Shown: positions 26,103 through 38,507 of the stretch, piece by piece
Numbering within the stretch: position 1 is the first letter of the stretch
How the letters are laid out: every line of letters starts with the position of its first letter
From: Bispira polyomma
Taxonomy: Eukaryota
Reading direction: 5' to 3'
Assembly: GCA_965649765.1 (NCBI GenBank)
Contig: OZ287757.1
Span: 11,718,001 to 11,782,000 of the forward strand
Length of the DNA: 64,000 nucleotides
The notes under the pieces: model-generated
Seen by the model: the letters and a program-made list of their open reading frames with translations, nothing else
Databases searched by the model: none
Told to the model about the DNA's origin: nothing
Position numbers and translations under genes: made by a program

Positions 26103-26458
26103 ACATTTTCAAACCCAAGAGAAAACTGTCGCCAGGAACTGAAGGATTTTTTTGGGGTGGATAATAGGTTTACAGATAGTTGAAGTCATTGAAACACACA
26201 CCACAGCCTACTTCCGGCATGCAATAATCACCTCACGTGTATCTTTTTTTAACAGTGAAGTGTTCTGTACTAACAATTTCCTATTGTATGTAAAACCATG
26301 CTCTATGCGCTTTTTAACTCGCTCTTTGTGAGTAACTTAATGAAAATTGAATAATATTTTTGTGGTGTCAACTGCATGCTGACAGACATAGACAGACATA
26401 GGTTATGGGGGTAACGAATGAAGTCGGCTGATATTTGACAACCTAGGAGTCAAAAGGG
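26103..26458 (+). mobile_element. M5 MITE
   Basis: TTAA left flank; ends aaaaggg; body homologous to 16427-16770. Confidence 0.75.
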
Positions 26459-26627
26459 TTTGTATATATTTATATATTGGTTAATTACTTACCACACCTG
26501 GTCTTGTGTGTTTCTAACTGAGTGCATTTTGTGTATTCGTGGATCTTTGGGAAGAATAATGGAACGAGCAAGTATATATTAGTCTGTTCTTCCAGAATTA
26601 TTGTCCATTATTTACCAAATAAAGTAC

Positions 26628-26887
26628 GATTTTTTTTTTTATTTTGGATATTTAACGTCCACTCTAGTACCTGTTTAGGTTAAATTGGGACGGAAAGTTG
26701 GAAATGCTGGAGGAAACACTGCATACAGTTGATCAAGGTTCTGCACTGAAACCAGCGGCCCACAGTAAGGAACTACCACCTTTCCCACATAGGCATTGAC
26801 AGGATTCGAACTCACGCCGCCCAGAGGGGAGAGATCAGTGATTGCGAAGTGCAATGCTTGCTAACCACTAGGCCACCGCGGCCCCCT
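26628..26887 (-). mobile_element. SINE family A, full length
   Basis: 12-bp TSD caaataaagtac (26616-26627 / 26888-26899). Confidence 0.93.
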
Positions 26888-26968
26888 CAAATAAAGTACA
26901 AGCATTGTGAACTTACATTGTGAAATTTCTTCAGATTGTATTTAAAAATTGTAATCTACTTTTGAGGC

Positions 26969-27287
26969 AGGGACAGCGGTGACCTAATGTTTAAAAGTAT
27001 CTGCTTCATAATCACTGGCCTCTCACCAATGTGGATTTGAATCCTTCTCGTTCCTTTATGTCGGAAATTATGTCAGGTAGAGATTCTACTTCCTATATGG
27101 CGGTGGTTTACATTGGTTTAAGTATTGGTTTCTTCCACCATTAAATCCGATGATTGTGCTATGAGCTAAGTTTAGGTTGGTGGTTTACAGTGGCTTTAGT
27201 ACTGGTTTCGTCCACCATTTTGAATCTGATGACTGTGCTATGAGCTAAGCTCTCGAAAGCGACACAACATCCCTACTAAATTCAATT
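26969..27287 (+). mobile_element. SINE family B with an internal ~75-bp tandem duplication
   Basis: Head like family A (aatcactggcctctcacc); ggtttc..ccaccatt..gtgctatgagctaag present twice. Confidence 0.7.
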
Positions 27288-28075
27288 TCTAGTTTTTAGG
27301 CTATTTTTGCCAATGATCCGCCTTTTTTAATAAAAAACTCGCCCCATTGTCAGAATGTTTTATTCACTGTGCACTTCATCAAATTGTTTATATGACACCA
27401 TTTGTTTTGGTTTTAGCCATTGACTATAGGAGATAAAATCTGTTTTTTTTGGTAATTTGAAAAACCACTTGCTACAGAATCATGCACTTAAGGCAGTATA
27501 ACAGTTGTAGTGACTATATATAGTTGGTTAAAACCCACTAAAACCATAAATAACACACTTCATCTCATGGGGTTGGATTTCCCCCTTATGTGTCTGTGAA
27601 ATACCCCCCACCCCCCATGGATTTTATGAGGTTGACATAAATACTTGTCATTATTTAGTGGACAAGTAAGAGTGTGGTGGGGAGGAGGGAGGGGAGGGGG
27701 GACCTCTGTTGTACTAGTACAAACTCTAAATAATTGTCTCTGACCCTGTAATTAACCTCTATCTGTGTGTATTGATTCACAAGGGAGAACATGGGTTGTC
27801 TTTTTAAAAGAAATACACTATAACATTGTTAACTTATTTTAAAATAGATGGGAGGTTAGACTGTCAAATAGATATGTCACATATGTAGATTCAATTTTGA
27901 TTTTCTCTCTTTTAAAAAGGTTTATGATTTGTGCCCATGTCCATTGGTTGGTTTATTTGATTTGTTTGAAACTGACCATAAATTATTATCCAGATATAGT
28001 CGGAAAATATCCAATATGGTCGAAAATGCTTGTGTAAAACACTATTATATTTATTTTAAACTCTGTAATTCTCAA

Positions 28076-28310
28076 CCCTTTCATCTCCTATAAAAAACTT
28101 ATGCTTGGAACTAAAGGACATTTTTTTTCGGAATAGGTCACAGATAGCTGAAGTTACTAAAACACAAACCACAGACTACTTCCGGCATTCAATAATGGAC
28201 TGCATACATATTTTTAAAACGAGGAATCTGTGCAACAATTTTCTGTTGCGAGGAACTAAATATATTTTTGGGGTGTCCACTGCTTACCGCCAGACTTAGG
28301 TTTTGGAGTG
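28076..28310 (+). mobile_element. M5 MITE (3'-truncated)
   Basis: CCCTTT start; aaaacacaaaccacagactacttccggcattcaataatgg. Confidence 0.75.
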
Positions 28311-28439
28311 GGCTAGTGGAGAGAAGGGGGCGTGTTCACAAACGTTCTTAGAATGAGACCTTTCTCCAGCACAGCAAATCAGATTGTTTACAAAATATAT
28401 TTTCAACCAAATCAAATTGGTTAATATTTAACTCTCTAA

Positions 28440-29077
28440 GCTTTCACTTCCTTTCAGCATGTTTTTTATCGGCCGACGTCCCCTCATTACACAATATCAC
28501 CAAGTGCTTCCTTTCAGCATATTTGTATCAGATCTGATCAGACGTCGTCCGACGTCTGTTTGGCAAAAATATTTTATCTGTCAGGAAGCGGAAAAATCGG
28601 GGAGGACTGTCTAATTTTGACATAAAAATGTCTACAGAAAGACTATCATAGGTATAGTTTTTATTCTATATATATATACTAAATATTCGTCAGATGTTGA
28701 CTTAAGAAATGCCATGAGAAAGCTTATTTTATTGTGATTACGATGCTTTTTTTCCCCAACAAAATCCGTTAAGAAACGGCTCAGATAATTATGTTTATAG
28801 ACGGGTAACCCTTTTAACTTTCCCCTTTACTGTTTATAATACATCACAGCAACGTCATAATGACATCGGTTTTGTAGCTACATCACCGTTTAGACACCTG
28901 AAGTAAAAATGGGCACCCTTATTTAACTGTATACATCTCAGCTGTAAAAAAATCACAATAAAGTAAGCTTTTTCATGCCATTTTTAAAGTCAACATCTAA
29001 CGAATATTGAGTGAATGTCGGATGAAAGAAAGCACAACGTCGGCCGACGTCAGAATTTGCTGAAAGGAAACATAGGC
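28440..29077 (+). mobile_element. MITE family M2 (Harbinger-like), split by M4
   Basis: TAA TSD on both sides; cttcctttcagca / tgctgaaaggaa TIRs. Confidence 0.8.
28686..29004. mobile_element. MITE M4 with ~55-bp TIRs, TA-flanked
   Basis: ttcgtcagatgttgacttaagaaatgccatgagaaagcttattttattgtgatt mirrored by aatcacaataaagtaagctttttcatgccatttttaaagtcaacatctaacgaa. Confidence 0.85.
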
Positions 29078-30211
29078 TAAGAATAAGAATCTTTGTGAAT
29101 ACCTTTCCACCACCAAGGCGCCTGGTCCCTTGGCAATGGAATGCAATCTACTGAGTTGAACTATTTAAAACCTAATTTTAAGAGTCCTTCTTGTTAGAGG
29201 TTTTTAGCCCTTTTGTGATGTGCTTTTTATTCGTTGTTAGCTTTTTCTAGTTTTAGTTTGCATTAAGATGCACTATTTGTTTCCATTTAAAAAAAGTTCC
29301 AAGGTAACTGGGCTGACAGAAAATCTATTGAATTGGAATTTACTATTGATAAAAACAGCAACAGCCCAGAAAATAAAACCTCCTCAGTCGATATCAAAAG
29401 AGATTCTGTAGGTGGCAAAGGTTCTTTATTACCGTAAACCTATACAAGCATTTATCCAATGCAAAACGTGAAACTATTTTGTTCTCCGACTGATTATTCC
29501 GAGTACTATAATAGCATCACTGCAATAAGATTACTTACATGAAGAGCTGCTTTACGTTGAATTAATTGCCAACACATTGTTTATGCTACATTAGCCAATC
29601 ACATAACAATACAAAGTGACCGTATGTCACATGCTATCTTTTGTCTGGTCATTTTCGGTTGCATGAATTTATTTGAGTTTTACGTTGCAGGGGTTGATAC
29701 ATGAACATGTATTTGAATTATGTATTATAGTGCTGTGTGTGGTGTGTATATTTCTGTCGTGCAGTGGTGTGTCGTTCCCTGCAGTGTAGTGAAGTGTGAT
29801 ATAGTGCAACTATATTGATTTTGAGAAATTCAAATACAGCACTTTCTGACCAAAATACAATCTTGTAACATTTCTTCTTGAAACTATTTATTATCATGCA
29901 AGGTAGACCTTTTAAATTTTATTTCTTGCTTTTATTTTACATTTTACACAGTTTTTATATTTAACCGTGTGTTTATATATGCTCTAGACAAAGGATGGTT
30001 GCAGTGTGGATTATATAAACTGAAATTCCTGGCTCCTGTGGATGTGTTATTAGTCAATGCTTTGACATATGCGAATTTGCTCATTTTGGGCTACGGTTGA
30101 GGGCTGTTCTTATTGTTATTTGAAATTTATCATATTTATTTCTTGAAATCACAAACAACCTCCACCCTAAATTCGCATGTTACAAAGCACTGCTTGCTAT
30201 ATATTTACAGA

Positions 30212-31273
30212 ATGGCACCTCGTGCAAATCATGATTGTCGTGTTTGCAAGACAAGTCACAAAAAACCCATAAACGATAACTGTCCGTTTATTAATCAGCC
30301 TGAAAACAATGACACTAATGACACTTCTACTATGTCTATTAAGGCACGTATTTTAGAAGAACTGAAAGGGCTAAGTGGAAGAATGTCAGCCATGGAGAAA
30401 CGGGTAGAGCAATCCGAAAATAGACAATTTGTTGCTAGCTCTACAGTAAGCCCTATAAATGTTGCCCCAAGTGGAATTCCCGCGGGGGCTGCGAGTGCTC
30501 TACAGACTGTTCCCACATTGACGCTGCCGACAGCCACCTAGACGACTCCTACTGTACCTGTCACCACAGACGATACACTGGTTCCTTCCCTGGCTACTCT
30601 GAAGACATCCGAGTACCTCCAGAATTCTGTAGATTCCAGACTGAGGGACTTAGCCAGCCTCAACGATAAAGGTAATGTCAAATCACAGAGAGGGGGGCCA
30701 GAAACGGTGTGGGTAAAACGCCAGGTTCCCTGGCCGCAGAACAATATTTTGGGAGGCACAACTAAGTCAAGAACTACATATGATAGTTTATCGATGGCTC
30801 AGTGGGTCGCAGGATTCTGCTCTATTGTTCGGGATGAAAATAACATTGAGACAAAAAATGCAATGTTAGATTATGTACAAGACTTAATGGAGGACTGCAA
30901 TGATTTTTCTTGGGCGGCTGCCAAAGGAAGTCATGCGGTTCTTCTATGTCGTATGGAAGAGGGTAAAGTTACTTGGCAAAAAATGGCCAAAATAGACAGA
31001 ATTAGAAGGGCGCATGCCCAAAGGGTGGTAAACAACACGGTTTCTTCCTCTCAATACAGTAAGACTAGACAGCAAAGTAGCGACAAGGGAATACCTTTCA
31101 GGTATTTCCAAAAAGGTTCGTGCCCACAAAGAAGGTATCACGAAACAAAGGGTCAGATGTACTTACACATTTGCTCTACTTGTTTCGCCATTGGGAAGTC
31201 TTATCCCCATGCCTCTAAAGATTGCCATAGAAACAAAGGCAAAACTGACCAGAATGTCGCAAAAAACGAGTAA
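30212..31273 (+). pseudogene. gag-like ORF1 (one in-frame TAG at 30539-30541)
   Basis: ORFs 30113-30541 and 30707-31273 share one frame and the gap between them is open; N-terminal CxxCxxxH..C, a coiled coil, VPSLATLK..VDSRL, WPQN..YDSLSMAQWVAGF..LMED..FSW, and a Cys/His-rich C-terminus. Confidence 0.8.
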
Positions 31274-33629
31274 GGCACTGCAGTACAGCAATGCACAAAT
31301 GTAAAATACTGAATACTGATCATGAATCTGTATATATTAGAGATCAAACGAAATATTGTAATACCAGAACTGTATATAATGTAAATTACCAAGCTGTGTG
31401 TAGTGACAACTGGAGGTCAGATTGGGCTAGATTCATTAATAAATCTTATGCACAAGTCGTGGCTCAAAACACAGGTAAAGTAAATAATAATCAAAAAACA
31501 CAACAGAATCCCGCCTCCAATTGTCACACAAGCGCGAAATGTCAAATGTACAGTGATGTATGTCCTAGTAATGTCAGTAGTTACAGGAACTCAAGGCAAC
31601 AGGTAGAAAGGGTGAAAGTTGGCACCTCTCAGGGTGTGAAACCTCTCATTAAAGAAACCCTCCTCTCCACTCCTATACCCAAGGGTCAAAGCCCCCCCTC
31701 TTTGAAACGTAGTGTCACAAAAATGTCACACAAATCAAGGGATAAAATGGGTTGCCAAAATAATCAATTACACTGTCAAAACAGATTTGCACCTCTTCAC
31801 AATTTGAGCATTGATGACGACCTTGTAATAAATACAAATCCTTGTAGTCAAAGTAGTCCAGCCTCACAGCCGGGTGATAAATATGCTCTGCAACTACAGG
31901 TAAAAAAGAAACACAGAGATGCTGTGTCAATGGCACAAGATAATAAATTGTTCAAAGCCTGGAATAGCCAAAATAAGGAAAAATTTGGGTTTATTCCCTT
32001 GCGGGATGCAAAATTGCCTAAAGAGGTTAAGGCTTGGTCACACTTGAGTTGCACAAAGTGGTTAAAGAAAACAAACTACCAAACTATCTAAATACCTGTA
32101 CAATCACAACTAAATGTCACTGAGTGGGAAAAGCTACTAGAACATTACTGGGATCGCCAGTTAATACAGCTTATCAAATTTGGGTTTCCTCTAGATTTTG
32201 ATAGGACTTGCTCCCTAGAGAATAAAGGGGAAAATCACAGCTCGGCCGTTCAGTACGAAAACGACGTTAAGGCTTACCTTGATTAGGAGAAAAACTTTAA
32301 TGCGATAATAGGTCCCTTCAGGGACCCTCCATTATCCAAACTTCATGTCTCTCGTTTTATGATGTGTCCAAAGCCAGATGCAAAACATAGACGGGTTACT
32401 ATAGATTTAAGTTGTCCTCAGGGTTGAGCAGTAAATTCAGCAATACAAAAAGACCAATACTTAGGTACTCCTTTTATTCTAACCCTGCCTACAGTTGACA
32501 ACATTACTAAAAACGTAATTAAATTGGGAAAAGGTGCACTGCTATACAAACTAGACATTAGTCGTGCATTTAGACACGTCAAAATTGATCCAGCAGATTA
32601 CAATTCATTAGGTTTACAATTAAATAATTACTACATAGATACTTGCTTGCCATTTGGATATCGGCACGGAAGCGCCATCTTCCAGCATCTCAGTGACGCC
32701 ATAAGGTTTATTATGACGTCAAATGGTCATGACGTCATCAACTATATCAATGACGTCATAGGATACGGACTTCCGGATTCAATTTCCCAGTCATTTGAAT
32801 TATTAAAAGACACGTTTCACAAATTAGGCTTCGCCATAAGTGAAAAGAAGATGGTAGCCCCCAGTACAAAAGTGATATGCCTAGGCGTATTAGTCGATAC
32901 AGAGAAATTTACAGTGTCAATCCCGGATAGCAAACTAGATGAAATTAAGCAAATATGTAAAAGCTGGAAAGACAAGAAAGTCTATAATAAATGGCAGCTA
33001 CAATCACTATTAGGCTCTCTCCTATACGTGTCAAAATGTCAAAACCTCTAGAGCATACCTTAACCGAATGTTAGATACTATCAGAGGGGCTTTTCAACAG
33101 GATTTGAACTGGTTTGATACATTCCTTACTTCCTTTAATGGGGTCGCATTTTTTGACCATAAACTCATCACTGATGAAGTACATTTAGATGCCTGCCTGC
33201 AGGGTTTAGGCGCTTCTTGCAATAATGAGATATACACTAAGCAGATACCATTGGGTTACAATAACTATACTATTGTCGATTTGGAAATGTTAAACATATT
33301 GGTTGCCCTAAGAGTCTGGAAAAATCACTGGTCGGGAAGAAAACTACTAATTCATTGTGATCATCAAGCTGTAGTGTCAATTTTAAACTCCGGTAAAACC
33401 TATGACCATACTTTGGCCGCAATAATGAGAAATATCTTTATGGTGGCAGCCCAAGCCGATATTGTGCTAAGAACAGTCCATATTTTGGGAAAAATGAACA
33501 ATACTGCCGACTTACTATCTAGATGGGCTATTACACCCAATAATGTTGACAACCTAAGCGAATTAGTAAAAAAAACCCACATGGCTTCAGGTCAAAGATG
33601 ACCTGGTACAGATAAATTGAGCTATTTAG
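31261..33629 (+). pseudogene. pol: reverse transcriptase + RNase H (DIRS/Ngaro type)
   Basis: FGFPL, GPF..PP, RRVTIDLS, LYKLDISRAFRHV, LPFGYRHGSAIFQ, YIND (YxDD decayed), CLGVLVDT; RNase H HLDACLQGLGA, LEMLN, IHCDHQAVV, HILGKMNNTADLLSR; stops at 32089, 32284 and 32425. Confidence 0.92.
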
Positions 33630-33645
33630 ATGTAAAATTTTTCAG

Positions 33646-34596
33646 GTTCTTCTACCTGGATGAACAGGCTAGCTGACATGGCGGCCAATCGAGCTCATCA
33701 AGCATTCCCACCAGCTACTCAAAAAGCTTCCTCTTCCATGTTTAGGGTGTTTCTAGCATACTGTTGTTTTGCTCACATTTCTATTCATCATATAACTCCA
33801 ATCACACTGCTTTCCTTCTTGGAAGTGCTAGTTGTCAATAATACGTCTCAGACATCAGTAACTACCTATCTGCCATTAAGGCTCAAATATCACTTTTCAG
33901 CCTCCAAGTGGGTGCCTTTTCTGATCAAAGAATTAAATACTTTCAAAAAGCTCTAATTTCACAAAGGCCTTTCAGAGCTAAGATAAATGGAATAATAGAT
34001 ATTGATCTGCTGGAAAAAATAGAAAAAACGTGTGACTCCATGTTTATGGATCAAATTTACAAAACTGCTTACCTTCTGGGTTTCTTTTATTTCCTAAGAA
34101 TTTCCAACCTAGTCCTACATTCCATGTCTACATACTCACCTCTTCACCAGTTAGCCAGGGCTGACATCATCTTCGCCCTCCTTGTGCTCATATTATTATC
34201 AAATGGACTAAAACCCTACAATCTAGAAATACCATTAAAGTCCTTAAAATTCCATCTTTACAGAATATTGCTATCTGCCCGGTTATGGCTCTAAAAGCCC
34301 TACTTACCATTACACCTGGCAGCAAAAACTCTCCCTTGTTTCAAGTAAAAAATAATGGTACCTGGGTTCCACTAACTGATTCTAAAATTCGTGCAAACCT
34401 AAAACACATATTGGCCAGGTTAGGTAAATCGGAATCCGCTCTGGCGCCACATTGGCATTCAATGCCCATGTTCCCTACAAGACATTCAGAGCCAGGGCAT
34501 TTGGTCCTCTGAATGCGTTTGAAGATACATTACACAAGATCTGACCAAGTAGCCCTCGCCCTTCAGTCTCTGCTCAACTCAACCCCTACCTCCTAG
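33646..34596 (+). pseudogene. Tyrosine recombinase (YR), frameshifted, HxxR box deleted
   Basis: AF..ATQ..MFRVFLAYC, GFFYFLRISNLV (catalytic Arg box), IKWTKTLQ, ICPVMAL, PLF, (R)SGATLAF, GIWSSECV*RY. Confidence 0.88.
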
Positions 34597-35180
34597 TTGG
34601 GCCTTGGTGGTTATTGTCTTATCTAATTAAAATTTACAACTTTTAACTTTACCTTTTGCTAACCTACTTAAGACCACCTTATAGTCAAAATTTTATGGTA
34701 ACCTCAAAGAGAAATGTAAGGCTAAGGCCAGTCTTAAATTATTTAATATAAAATGTTAAGGTTACCTTAAATTCATTAATAGTAAAATTAATATCCTTAA
34801 TTTACGTTCACCTTAAACCAAGTCTAACTCAAGCCACACTTAATGTAACTTAGACTATGGTCATCGTTATCTCACTAAGGTGGTCTTATTTAATTTAAAA
34901 TATTTTATCAATTCATATATATGTGTAGAAGTAGATAAATATATATAATCCTAACTGTTGTCTTATTTGAGGTCAAACTCCAACTCAAGGTCAGAGCACT
35001 AAACTTCTTATATACTGAAAACTTCAGGATTCCAGTTTTGCACTAGTCTTCCTGAAGGGCCCCGTCTTATTGCAGTTCAGAGAAGATCCTGACACTACCA
35101 TACTAATCTGTAATACTTTCGTCCCACCAAAACATTGGCTATCGTAATGTAATGATCAATTGGTGAAAAATCAACATTTA

Positions 35181-35422
35181 CCCTTTTCACCCCAAGGAAC
35201 AATTACCGCCCTGTACCGAAGGAAATTTCTCGGTAATAGGCTATGGAAAGCTGGAGTCACTAAAACACACCCCACAGAATACTTTGGGGATTCAAATGTA
35301 ATGCCCTCATGTATAATATTTTAATTTTATAACGGGGAACAATGCGGTACTAACACTTTCATATTGTTAGGACCTGAAAATTTAGTCCAATGTTTGCCGG
35401 CAGACATAGATTCTGGGAGTAA
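35181..35422 (+). mobile_element. M5 MITE interrupted by M2
   Basis: cccttttc start; agctggagtcactaaaacacac. Confidence 0.7.
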
Positions 35423-35730
35423 GCCTGTGCATCCTTTTAGCAGATTCCGACGTCAGCCAATTTATTAACATCCGAGCCGATCCGACATCAGCCAATGTAG
35501 CATTTCCTTTCATCCAATATTAAAAAACATTTTAATATAATTCTTTTTCTTCATTTTTGTTCAAAAATTGGACAGACGTCCCGATTGTTTCACTCTCTGA
35601 CCAATAAATTTTGATGGTACGTGTAACAGATGTCAGCCGACGTCTGATCTAATCTGAGGGAAATATGTTGAAAGGAAGCCATTAGTAATATTAAATAATG
35701 ATCGATAACATGCTAAAAGGAAGCCTAAGC
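35423..35730 (-). mobile_element. M2 MITE
   Basis: Reverse-complement homolog of 38165-38507; TAA and TTA flanks. Confidence 0.8.
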
Positions 35731-35744
35731 TTAGAGATGCTGTC

Positions 35745-36004
35745 TTTTGAATTGAATTTGGATATTTTTAACGTCCACTCCAGTACCTTTTAGTAGGTTA
35801 TATTGGGACAGGTAGTTAGAAACGCTGGAGGAAACATTGCATACAATTGATCAAGGTTCTGCACTGAAACCAGCGGCCCACAGTAAGGAACTACCACCTT
35901 TCCCACATAGGCATCGACGGGAGTCGAACTCAAGCCACCCAGAGGTGAGAGACCAGTGATTGTGAAGTGCAATGCTTGCTAACCACTAGGCCACCGCGGC
36001 CCCC
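35745..36004 (-). mobile_element. SINE family A, full length
   Basis: 14-bp TSD ttagagatgctgtc / ttatagacgctgtc. Confidence 0.92.
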
Positions 36005-37319
36005 TTATAGACGCTGTCAGCTGCTAGCTGGCAACAAAAGTGGTTGACACGGTTAATTTCAAAATTAAAATCCATGATACAATACCTAATGGTTGAAAAA
36101 AATTGGTAAAACAAATTGGGTTAATCGCTTATTTATCCTGGAGCTTCACATACAGGTATGTTAGGCCCAACAATGGATATATTTAGAAATTCACAGAGGA
36201 AAACAGATTAACTTAGTCCCAGCACAAACCAGTCCAGAATGGTTAATCCTCAAAGACCATGCAGTCTGATAAGGGTAAAGTGACTTACTTGTCTTTAAAT
36301 TTTTAACAGTTGTGATAGGATTTACCAACCAGTAAACAAATATTTCATTAGGAAAAGCTGTTACTAATTTAAACGACGGGTTAATGAGTTTAAGAAAGCT
36401 GCAAGTGGCTTCAAGATGGCACAGACAGCTTCTAGTATATGTTAATAGAAAGCCTTTAAGTATCATAAATTGGGATTTGCGAATCGATTCTTATCTGGTT
36501 TAGGTGCATTTTAATGCGCAAAGCGATGTAACCAAAGTAAAATTCAGAAATAAAAACTAAAAATCGTAGTTTTTTGGTTCTTGAAGTAAATAAGAAACCG
36601 TGTTAAAAAGTTATATTTTCAAGGTAAAGTTGAAATAACCTCCCCAAGGATCTAATTATCGGTACAATGGTAGATTTGTGACATTTGTTTTGATGGAGAC
36701 TGTAAAACTTAATAAAGACTACACATGCATATCATAATTCTTTGGAAGAGCATGTTTTTGCTAAAGAACCTGAAGATTGAATAAACCATTGCTTAATGGT
36801 AATTGCTTTTCTGAAATCAGAAAAGCCATAAAAACGTTGAAGTAATGGCTATATATTCAGTTCCAATGTCACATTCTATCAATGGTGTGTGATTTAATAA
36901 TGTAAATATATCTTTTTAATCAATATGATTTATTTATATATATATTCTTAAATGTTGATTACCTGTAGGAAATTTGACCAAATGTTACCAAAAATAGCTA
37001 CAGTCTTTGATTGCATTATAATACCATTCAAAAAGTATTGTCATAAATCTGCCAAATACTAATGGACACATTATGTGTGCATATATACAAAGGATAAATA
37101 TCTTTCAACAGCTAAAAATTACTGTAACTTAAAACTATTCAGGTCGTTCCCTGAAATTATAGATGTTGCACTTGACACCAGTTTGAGGGGCGGGGGGGGG
37201 GGGAGGGGGGGGGCTGATGTCATAGATGACTTGATTTCTGAGGTTCACTGTGACGTGTCCCTCTGGCAAGATAGCTGAGAGACAGCATATATGCTGGTAG
37301 CTTTAATGGGCAGTCTTTA

Positions 37320-37605
37320 AAAACGCTCTTTTATTGTTTCCGGCAACAATTTCAGATGAGAAGGTTACAGACAGCTGGAGTCACTAAAACACACACCACA
37401 GACTACTTCTGACATTCAATACCGGCCTCACATATAATTATAAAAAGGGGCGAATTCTGCTGTACTACCCATTCCCTACTTCGAGGGACTGAAGATAATC
37501 AGAATAATATTTTCAGCGTGTCGACTATTTGCCGACAAATATAGGTCCTGGGAGGAACAAATGCTATTGTCTGACAGTCGACAACCCAGGAGTCAAAATC
37601 AGGGT
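37320..37605 (+). mobile_element. M5 MITE
   Basis: cagctggagtcactaaaacacacaccacagactacttc..gtcgacaacccaggagtcaaaa. Confidence 0.7.
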
Positions 37606-38164
37606 TTGCATGTTAATATTATAAATGTTTTGTACACTAAACCCTTAACTTTCTATTCATTAAAAATGCCTTATAAACGATCATTAACAAATTTGCGAAT
37701 GATATAACCCAATAACTAAAACCACATCTTTAAATATAAATCTCGTGAGATTTCCTATAATATTTAATTTCTTGCACACCACATTTTTTCTATTTTTAAG
37801 TGACAGTTGATGGAACTCTTTTTGTTTAACTGGGTCTTTGAGAACCAATTTGCCAGTGTCAATGCTGCAGGTAGCCTGGGCTAAGGCCCATAAGTTATTT
37901 ATAACAATTTTTGGGGGGCGTGGTTTATAAGCATCTGGGGTTATAATATCGAACAACTAAAACTAAAATTTTACTTCCTTATACCCAAGTGCTATTCTCA
38001 AAAACAGGAGAAAACTTAAACACATATTTAACCTTAAAGATAAAGGTTGATTCTATGGCAAACTTAAGACAGTGAATTTTTTTGGAATAGTAATTTACTT
38101 ACGTAAATATATATGATGGTTCCGATACAGAAAATAGCAGTACAAAGCATAGGATGTTCACTTA

Positions 38165-38507
38165 GCCTACGCTTCCTTTCAGCATGTTTTTCTTGGCCGA
38201 CGTTGGCCGACATCGGTCTATTTCTTGGCTCATTACACAATACTACCAAGTGCTTCCTTTCAGCATATTTGCTACAGATCAGATCAGACGTCGGCCAACG
38301 TCTGTTGGGCTAACATATTTTATTTTTTAGGGAGGGGAAAATTCGGGGGGACTGTCAGATTTTTTAATAAAATATTAACAAAAAAAAAAATTTTTTTTTT
38401 ACATAGAATATTTCTGATGAAATGAAGCGATACATCTGACGATGTCGGATCGGCTTGGACACACGCAAATCGGCCAATGTTGGAATGTGTTGAAAGGAAG
38501 CGTAGGC
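38165..38507 (+). mobile_element. M2 MITE, intact (PIF/Harbinger-like)
   Basis: TIR gcctacgcttcctttca / tgaaaggaagcgtaggc; TTA TSD on both sides. Confidence 0.92.

Follow-up and report, generated by a model that had tools for sequence, protein, structure and literature searches.

Conserved, phase-matched splice signals point to a probable Gag-N–tyrosine recombinase fusion in an Ngaro-type retrotransposon family of Bispira polyomma

An Ngaro-type retrotransposon family in the genome of Bispira polyomma carries a conserved donor-like site within gag and a conserved, phase-matched acceptor-like site at the beginning of its tyrosine recombinase (YR) frame. Judged from the sequences, these two sites are probably real and joined to one another, in which case YR would be made from a spliced mRNA as a fusion of the N-terminal part of Gag (Gag-N) with the recombinase, approximately 460–490 residues in length. 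The copy at the origin of this work lies in a window of 64,000 nucleotides (GenBank assembly GCA_965649765.1, contig OZ287757.1, positions 11,718,001 to 11,782,000 of the forward strand), where it spans positions 29897 to 35000 (Table 1). Elements of this type are known, and it is their expression route that is apparently undescribed: in the literature examined, the translation of the last ORF of DIRS-order elements is a matter of guesses only (i.e., frameshifting), and our search found no report of a gag–YR splice, although an earlier mention in Goodwin and Poulter (2004) or Poulter and Butler (2015) is possible.

The copy is a decayed member of the Ngaro-type YR retrotransposons (order DIRS). 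It was classed by the structural definitions found in passages of three sources, which require gag, RT/RNase H, and YR on one strand, no methyltransferase, and split direct repeats of the arrangement A1...B1 A2 B2 (PMC4157794; PMC3783388; PMC9210276). The Ngaro-like identity put forward in the original prediction is upheld by the ORF order, the lack of a methyltransferase, the split direct repeats, and the YR residues. Three ORFs lie on one strand in the order gag, RT/RNase H, and YR, with YR last; pol ends shortly after RNase H, and a Pfam scan of three unbroken pol frames returned RT and RNase H families only. No Pfam match to DDE integrase or protease families was obtained in the element. 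Split direct repeats (A1..B1 A2 spacer B2) were recovered in 8 of 15 copies tested and in further families, while the window copy retains only the A1 stump and one B. For YR, the matches to PF00589 and to SAM-like domains fell below the Pfam cut-off, and both are listed for many of its relatives; the residues R157, K195, H275, and Y309 are invariant in 37 sequences. A DIRS1-like identity was rejected because the repeats are direct, not inverted, and there is no methyltransferase, and a PAT-like identity was rejected because split direct repeats are present but a methyltransferase domain was not found.

Gag-N has the content originally ascribed to it, a CCHC-like finger (C-x2-C-x3-H-x7-C) and a coiled coil; the coiled-coil helix carries an RhxxhE motif, and Gag-N also includes a second helix. 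In a modest Gag model (pLDDT 67, 16 sequences), for which no fold match in the PDB was found, a long helix is predicted at 47–76, and the RhxxhE motif within it is present in 26 of 29 representatives; this motif is often tied to trimeric coiled coils, as stated in a passage of PMC5381506. In the same model, the Gly codon that would be split by the donor closes a predicted helix at 115–134, in front of the conserved core. The window copy is no longer functional, with a TAG in gag (30539–30541), several breaks in pol, and a YR frame that shuts after 102 codons. It therefore makes nothing and, as had been recognized from the position of the TAG upstream of the donor, could not itself make the fusion.

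Table 1. Features of the window copy (positions in the window; the slash marks the predicted exon boundary).
Feature	Positions	Strand	Remarks
Left split direct repeat A1, 13-nt stump	29897..29909	+	Remainder of A1 (~200 nt in relatives) missing here
5' leader, common to other copies; T-rich AG just 5' of gag ATG	29910..30211	+	
Gag-N coding part, 153 codons plus first Gly base	30212..30671	+	Predicted first coding exon of YR mRNA
5' splice donor AAG/GTAATG, phase 1	30669..30677	+	Candidate
Whole gag ORF, unspliced reading; C-terminal zinc-knuckle-like region	30212..31273	+	
Predicted -1 frameshift signal for pol	31261..31295	+	Slippery A AAA AAC 31261-31267, gag stop, hairpin 31274-31295
pol: variable linker, RT, RNase H	31249..33629	+	-1 frame relative to gag; broken here; within predicted intron
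16-nt pol–YR spacer = candidate 3' splice site TTTTTCAG, phase 1	33630..33645	+	
Tyrosine recombinase exon: SAM-like and catalytic domains	33646..34596	+	Frameshifted here; ATG 33660 private
Repeat B; window copy stops here, without A2-spacer-B2	34607..35000	+	

The B. polyomma genome (1.04 Gb) holds many families of the element, with 13,730 first-look candidates for the YR protein. One hundred copies were taken, 40 near the family of the window copy and 60 from other families, and 96 of them had a usable YR anchor (three lacked one, and one deletion was dropped). The YR sequences formed 31 clusters at 80% identity and 38 at 85%, with a mean identity of 62% between the latter. One representative was used for each of 30 clusters, one cluster without gag being omitted; since representatives were chosen after the copies had been seen, with less broken ones preferred, counts over all copies are given alongside.

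The predicted donor was found as first described, reading AAG/GTAATG with the exon ending at 30671, where a GGT (Gly) codon of the gag frame has its first base (i.e., phase 1). Of the 87 copies that contain gag, 79 have GGTA at the mapped codon and two more have it shifted by an indel, giving 81 of 87 unselected copies. The donor Gly is encoded by GGT in 29 of 29 family representatives—which are not 29 independent events, because the families share ancestry—and among the 39 conserved Gly columns drawn from gag, pol, and YR the next reaches 0.73 for a single codon. Over 173 conserved fourfold columns the median is 0.44, and three columns reach 0.95: the donor and two in the frameshift hairpin. 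The residue ahead of the donor Gly may be K, S, T, A, or Q, with a codon ending in A in 28 of 29 representatives, while position +3 of the donor is A in 29 of 29 and T is found at +6 in 27. A Thr following the donor Gly is encoded by ACG in 10 of 11 cases against a background of 9%, yielding GTACGT. When its matches to the consensus MAG/GTRAGT are simply counted, the donor reaches 5.86 of 7, compared with 3.79 for the next of 48 conserved GT columns; a G at +5 is present in only 11 of 29 families and absent in 18. By these comparisons, the donor is under constraint at the nucleotide level, beyond what the protein needs.

At the other end, the predicted acceptor, aaatttttcag/G, likewise proved to be in place, its AG ending at 33645 in phase 1, 16 nt past the pol stop (TAG at 33627–33629 in the window copy). 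At 29 mapped loci, the acceptor CAG is kept in 26 and the donor in 28. The pol stop could be located in 94 of the 96 copies; for 86 of these, the first AG past it has phase 1 relative to YR. Two of the eight exceptions have lost the AG, and the other six retain it but carry an indel farther downstream. This count over unselected copies, together with the nucleotide-level constraint on the donor, takes the phase match beyond the 1-in-3 chance that the original prediction had conceded. The distance from pol stop to acceptor varies between 6 and 21 nt across copies; among the members of a single family at 95% identity, it is 7, 8, or 9 nt, and the phase is maintained. All 30 representatives have the acceptor in phase 1 with an invariant AG, preceded by T at −6 and −5 in 29 of them, and the triplet is CAG in 25, TAG in 3, and AAG in 2. 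The residues read over the site vary (SG, VG, LG, SD, TD, AD, PD, SA, and SV), so it is not the protein sequence that holds the site. Joint conservation of donor and acceptor in phase 1, by which the predicted splice was to be judged, is thus strong within the B. polyomma genome.

The YR start codon of the original prediction needs revision: the ATG at 33660 exists in the window copy, but it was found in 0 of 28 other mapped copies (a DNA search gave 30 loci, of which 29, including the window copy, could be mapped), which have GTG, GTC, GTA, or GCG at this codon. DNA contigs from three runs carry mostly or wholly G at the same position. Because this ATG is private to the window copy, the YR frame opens without a start codon. 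The first in-frame Met lies 26–30 codons past the acceptor in 28 of 30 representatives, and an in-frame ATG upstream without an intervening stop is found in only 3 of 30. By their pattern of substitution, the codons from acceptor to Met evolve as coding sequence, with mostly third-position change; differences at the three codon positions are 0.34/0.25/0.59 there, compared with 0.44/0.29/0.59 after the Met. With no conserved start of its own, YR depends on one located farther upstream, which neither one frameshift nor one read-through event can provide. Given that no ATG is conserved near the acceptor, the splice would be needed to provide the start codon and not merely be compatible with the sequence.

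According to the model that we favor, one transcript would yield three proteins, all starting at the gag ATG: Gag from the unspliced mRNA, stopping at the end of gag; Gag-Pol through a predicted −1 ribosomal frameshift at A AAA AAC and the hairpin; and Gag-N-YR through excision of an intron of about 3 kb, which would remove Gag-C and all of pol. The predicted intron covers 30672–33645 in the window copy (2974 nt), and in ten less-broken copies the join yields 462–488 aa with introns of 2988–3492 nt. The end of gag consists of A AAA AAC, one codon, the stop, and then an 8-bp hairpin. A slippery site followed by a hairpin is the classical arrangement for −1 frameshifting, and 60 of 87 copies have both parts; the hairpin of the window copy has one stem mismatch and folds poorly (z 1.43). 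Pol is in the −1 frame to gag, and its first Met lies anywhere from codon 39 to 317. Having a conserved frameshift signal of its own, pol needs no splice. A conserved acceptor for pol was not found; the sites in the linker of 16 copies are scattered, falling 14/14/2 in phases 1/2/0.

We infer that the two conserved sites are joined to each other in the RNA, and we assign only a small probability to their both being real with other partners, such that the YR acceptor would be paired with a donor in the leader or elsewhere, and the gag donor with another acceptor or with nothing more than U1, bound for the control of termination. A T-rich AG just 5' of the gag ATG, common to many families, hints at a leader intron, and passages of PMC5580714 describe the regulation of termination by U1 and splicing in plant Copia elements. 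Yet 25 leaders contain no conserved donor-like GT or upstream ATG, and with a non-coding leader, the first 30 conserved codons of YR would go untranslated. Moreover, the phases of donor and acceptor match, and no rival acceptor between them is conserved, the best being present in 14 of 29 (phase 0) and the best in phase 1 in 9 of 29, compared with 26 of 30 for the YR acceptor. Between the donor and the YR acceptor, each element contains 1–14 TTNYAG motifs, which would have to be skipped.

A different route has been published for YR, the translation of which was considered by Poulter and Butler (2015), as quoted in PMC13003380, to occur probably by frameshift. YR would then be reached from pol by ribosomal frameshifting or stop read-through, giving a Gag-Pol-YR polyprotein, and such a route could draw on the 37 of 94 copies in which YR is in the −1 frame and the two frames overlap over a short open stretch, on the 34 in which it lies in frame past the stop, and on the presence of a frameshift signal elsewhere in the element. 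However, YR is in the +1 frame in the other 23, and that the pol/YR frame takes all three values argues against this proposal. All three frames occur among young multi-copy families (spacers of 6, 8, 10, and 17 nt), and a quick tree restricted to the families of the B. polyomma genome shows many changes of frame. Neither a slippery site nor a hairpin was seen by eye at the pol/YR boundary, and the invariant phase-1 YAG and the GGT-only Gly in gag would go unexplained, making frameshift or read-through from pol very unlikely. Initiation at the internal Met of YR, about 30 codons in, through an internal promoter, re-initiation, or internal ribosome entry, with the splice-like motifs as by-products, is just as hard to credit: this Met is present in nearly all families of the genome, but the codons upstream of it are under coding-type constraint and form part of the SAM-like domain, relatives elsewhere (n=70) have Lys at this place in 31 cases and Met in 29, and the synonymous constraint on the donor is left without explanation.

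Several searches bear on a joined gag–YR form. No intron-less genomic copy with gag joined to YR was found, a weak test in which three junction motifs gave 4, 7, and 0 matches; the four matches lie within YR, and of the seven, six match nothing and one is near a YR piece. Deletions in three close copies do not have their ends at splice sites. No Gag-N-YR fusion was found among 150 Gag-N relatives and no fusion-length protein among the 120 YR relatives listed, both weak tests because these proteins are apparently genomic gene calls. A word-index search with Gag-N for fusion proteins found nothing, and in DNA-like contigs of three runs (80% likeness), the gag–YR join was not among the 15 of 96 joints listed.

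Relatives of the element were also compared in other organisms. The rule of taking the first AG past the pol stop fails in distant elements with long spacers or pol/YR overlap and is not transferable, so the distant loci were read by eye. Among 23 metagenome loci (22–40% YR identity, about ten lineages), a pyrimidine-rich phase-1 YAG was read at the YR start in 14, four of which have the acceptor-like site inside the end of pol; six of the remaining loci have the site with a broken frame, and three lack the region. Of 10 distant gag ORFs, only 7 (3 of ~6 lineages) have their best-scoring donor in phase 1; in two others, a weaker site in phase 1 lies at the corresponding position. Among the 120 YR proteins listed, 30 extend far enough upstream, and 26 of these fit a loose acceptor-type residue pattern. 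Of the 150 Gag-N relatives, 72 could be anchored and 56 have the donor Gly, with a second residue that needs a T-starting codon in 52 of the 56; they mostly read G-K-F/L/Y, as G/GTAAGT would, a pattern seen in proteins only and for which protein constraint may be responsible instead. No relative was found in viral contigs. On balance, we lean towards a broad Ngaro group, well beyond the B. polyomma genome, that would express a read-through Gag, a −1 frameshift Gag-Pol, and a long-intron Gag-N-recombinase, with both enzymes sharing a Gag-N oligomerization tag and being built into the particle, and with the annotated YR ORF representing the second exon.

If the splice is used, it would give the integrating enzyme both its start codon and a Gag-derived assembly tag, and the host spliceosome would set the balance between genomic RNA and recombinase mRNA. 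Speculatively, Gag-N, with its finger and predicted trimeric coiled coil, could allow the recombinase to assemble together with Gag and Gag-Pol on the RNA or cDNA of the element, the shared Gag-N playing the role that the Gag-Pol fusion has for integrase in LTR elements. The annotation of Ngaro elements would also change, YR becoming exon 2 of a protein of ~480 aa instead of one of ~300–330 aa. Passages of PMC3783388 note that, in every fungal Ngaro group, YR can be either in frame with pol or shifted relative to it, and the splice would explain this variable frame. The predicted junction is known to the base in about 30 families.

With respect to known systems, the published route for YR in Ngaro elements, as quoted in PMC13003380, is a frameshift from pol, whereas the sequences described here suggest a splice onto Gag-N, with frameshifting used for pol. 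The analogy with retroviral env splicing drawn in the original prediction holds in that a downstream gene would be expressed from a spliced subgenomic mRNA, as passages of PMC6669543 and PMC10309623 describe for foamy virus pol and retroviral env, but the closer match is CERV of the Caenorhabditis elegans LTR retrotransposon Cer1, and not simple env. Foamy virus Pol is made independently of Gag (passage in PMC6669543), whereas the product predicted here keeps 130–160 Gag residues; unlike in foamy viruses and retroviruses, RT and the integrating enzyme would also be made by different routes. In plant Ty1/Copia elements, conserved splicing likewise sets the protein ratio of a retrotransposon, although the spliced RNA there gives Gag alone (passages in PMC5580714), and here it would give the recombinase. 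The likeness to Cer1 extends further, in that the CERV mRNA is spliced across pol and attaches peptides from the N-terminal part of the Gag frame to the 3'-most ORF, the CERV product has a leucine zipper in common with Gag, and its TTTCAG acceptor is conserved among species, as reported in passages of PMC10309623. By the same account, CERV is an RNA-export factor encoded by five exons, in an element of another order, whereas the protein proposed here would be an integrating enzyme whose mRNA is formed by the removal of one intron.

The gag-pol junction of the window element, a decayed Ngaro-type tyrosine recombinase (YR) retrotransposon copy, carries a predicted -1 frameshift signal whose slippery heptamer, stop and hairpin are all kept in 60 of the 87 gag-bearing copies from the same genome. 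No such signal for the DIRS order turned up in the literature searched, and this predicted one is clean and open to testing. In the distant elements L103 (3006-3010), L106, L111, L114 and L116, a single TGA separates gag from in-frame pol, which suggests that pol would be reached there by read-through rather than by frameshifting; the predicted YR acceptor is retained in these elements.

Features and their positions
Feature	Position	Description
Predicted -1 frameshift signal, gag end	window 31261-31295	A AAA AAC, then stop, then 8-bp hairpin with free loop
T-rich AG upstream of gag ATG	window 30200-30212	found in many families
A2-B2 spacer	L068:7202-7963; L138:8191-9053; others	450-930 nt, 38-45% GC

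Across many families, the T-rich AG lies 1–40 nt upstream of the gag ATG and about 30 nt downstream of a conserved GTATCAAAGC-like motif. It could mark a leader intron or another cis signal; no conserved donor was found among the 25 leaders compared. In the L131 leader, a 72-nt sequence occurs four times in tandem between this AG and the gag ATG.

Many copies, including the window element (29897-35000; most of A1 also gone), L061-L065, L069 and L080, have the form A...ORFs...B and lack A2-spacer-B2, the arrangement expected if B1 had recombined with B2. The spacer is similar across families and contained no ORF longer than 118 codons in the nine copies checked.

Tandem repeats (units of ~78 and 188 nt) enclose several elements (L135, L156, L079, L070 and L091 flanks), hinting at a target preference. 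The flanks of the window element, at 26155-28600 and 35200-38500, contain several dispersed short repeats (70–212 nt, some as inverted pairs); DNA contigs cover the repeat near 35240 to a very high depth.

ATTGG, TTCCCGC and CGCCATNTT recur in the A1 repeats of L068, L076, L131, L138 and L161 and possibly constitute an internal promoter; they resemble CCAAT-box, E2F and YY1 sites.
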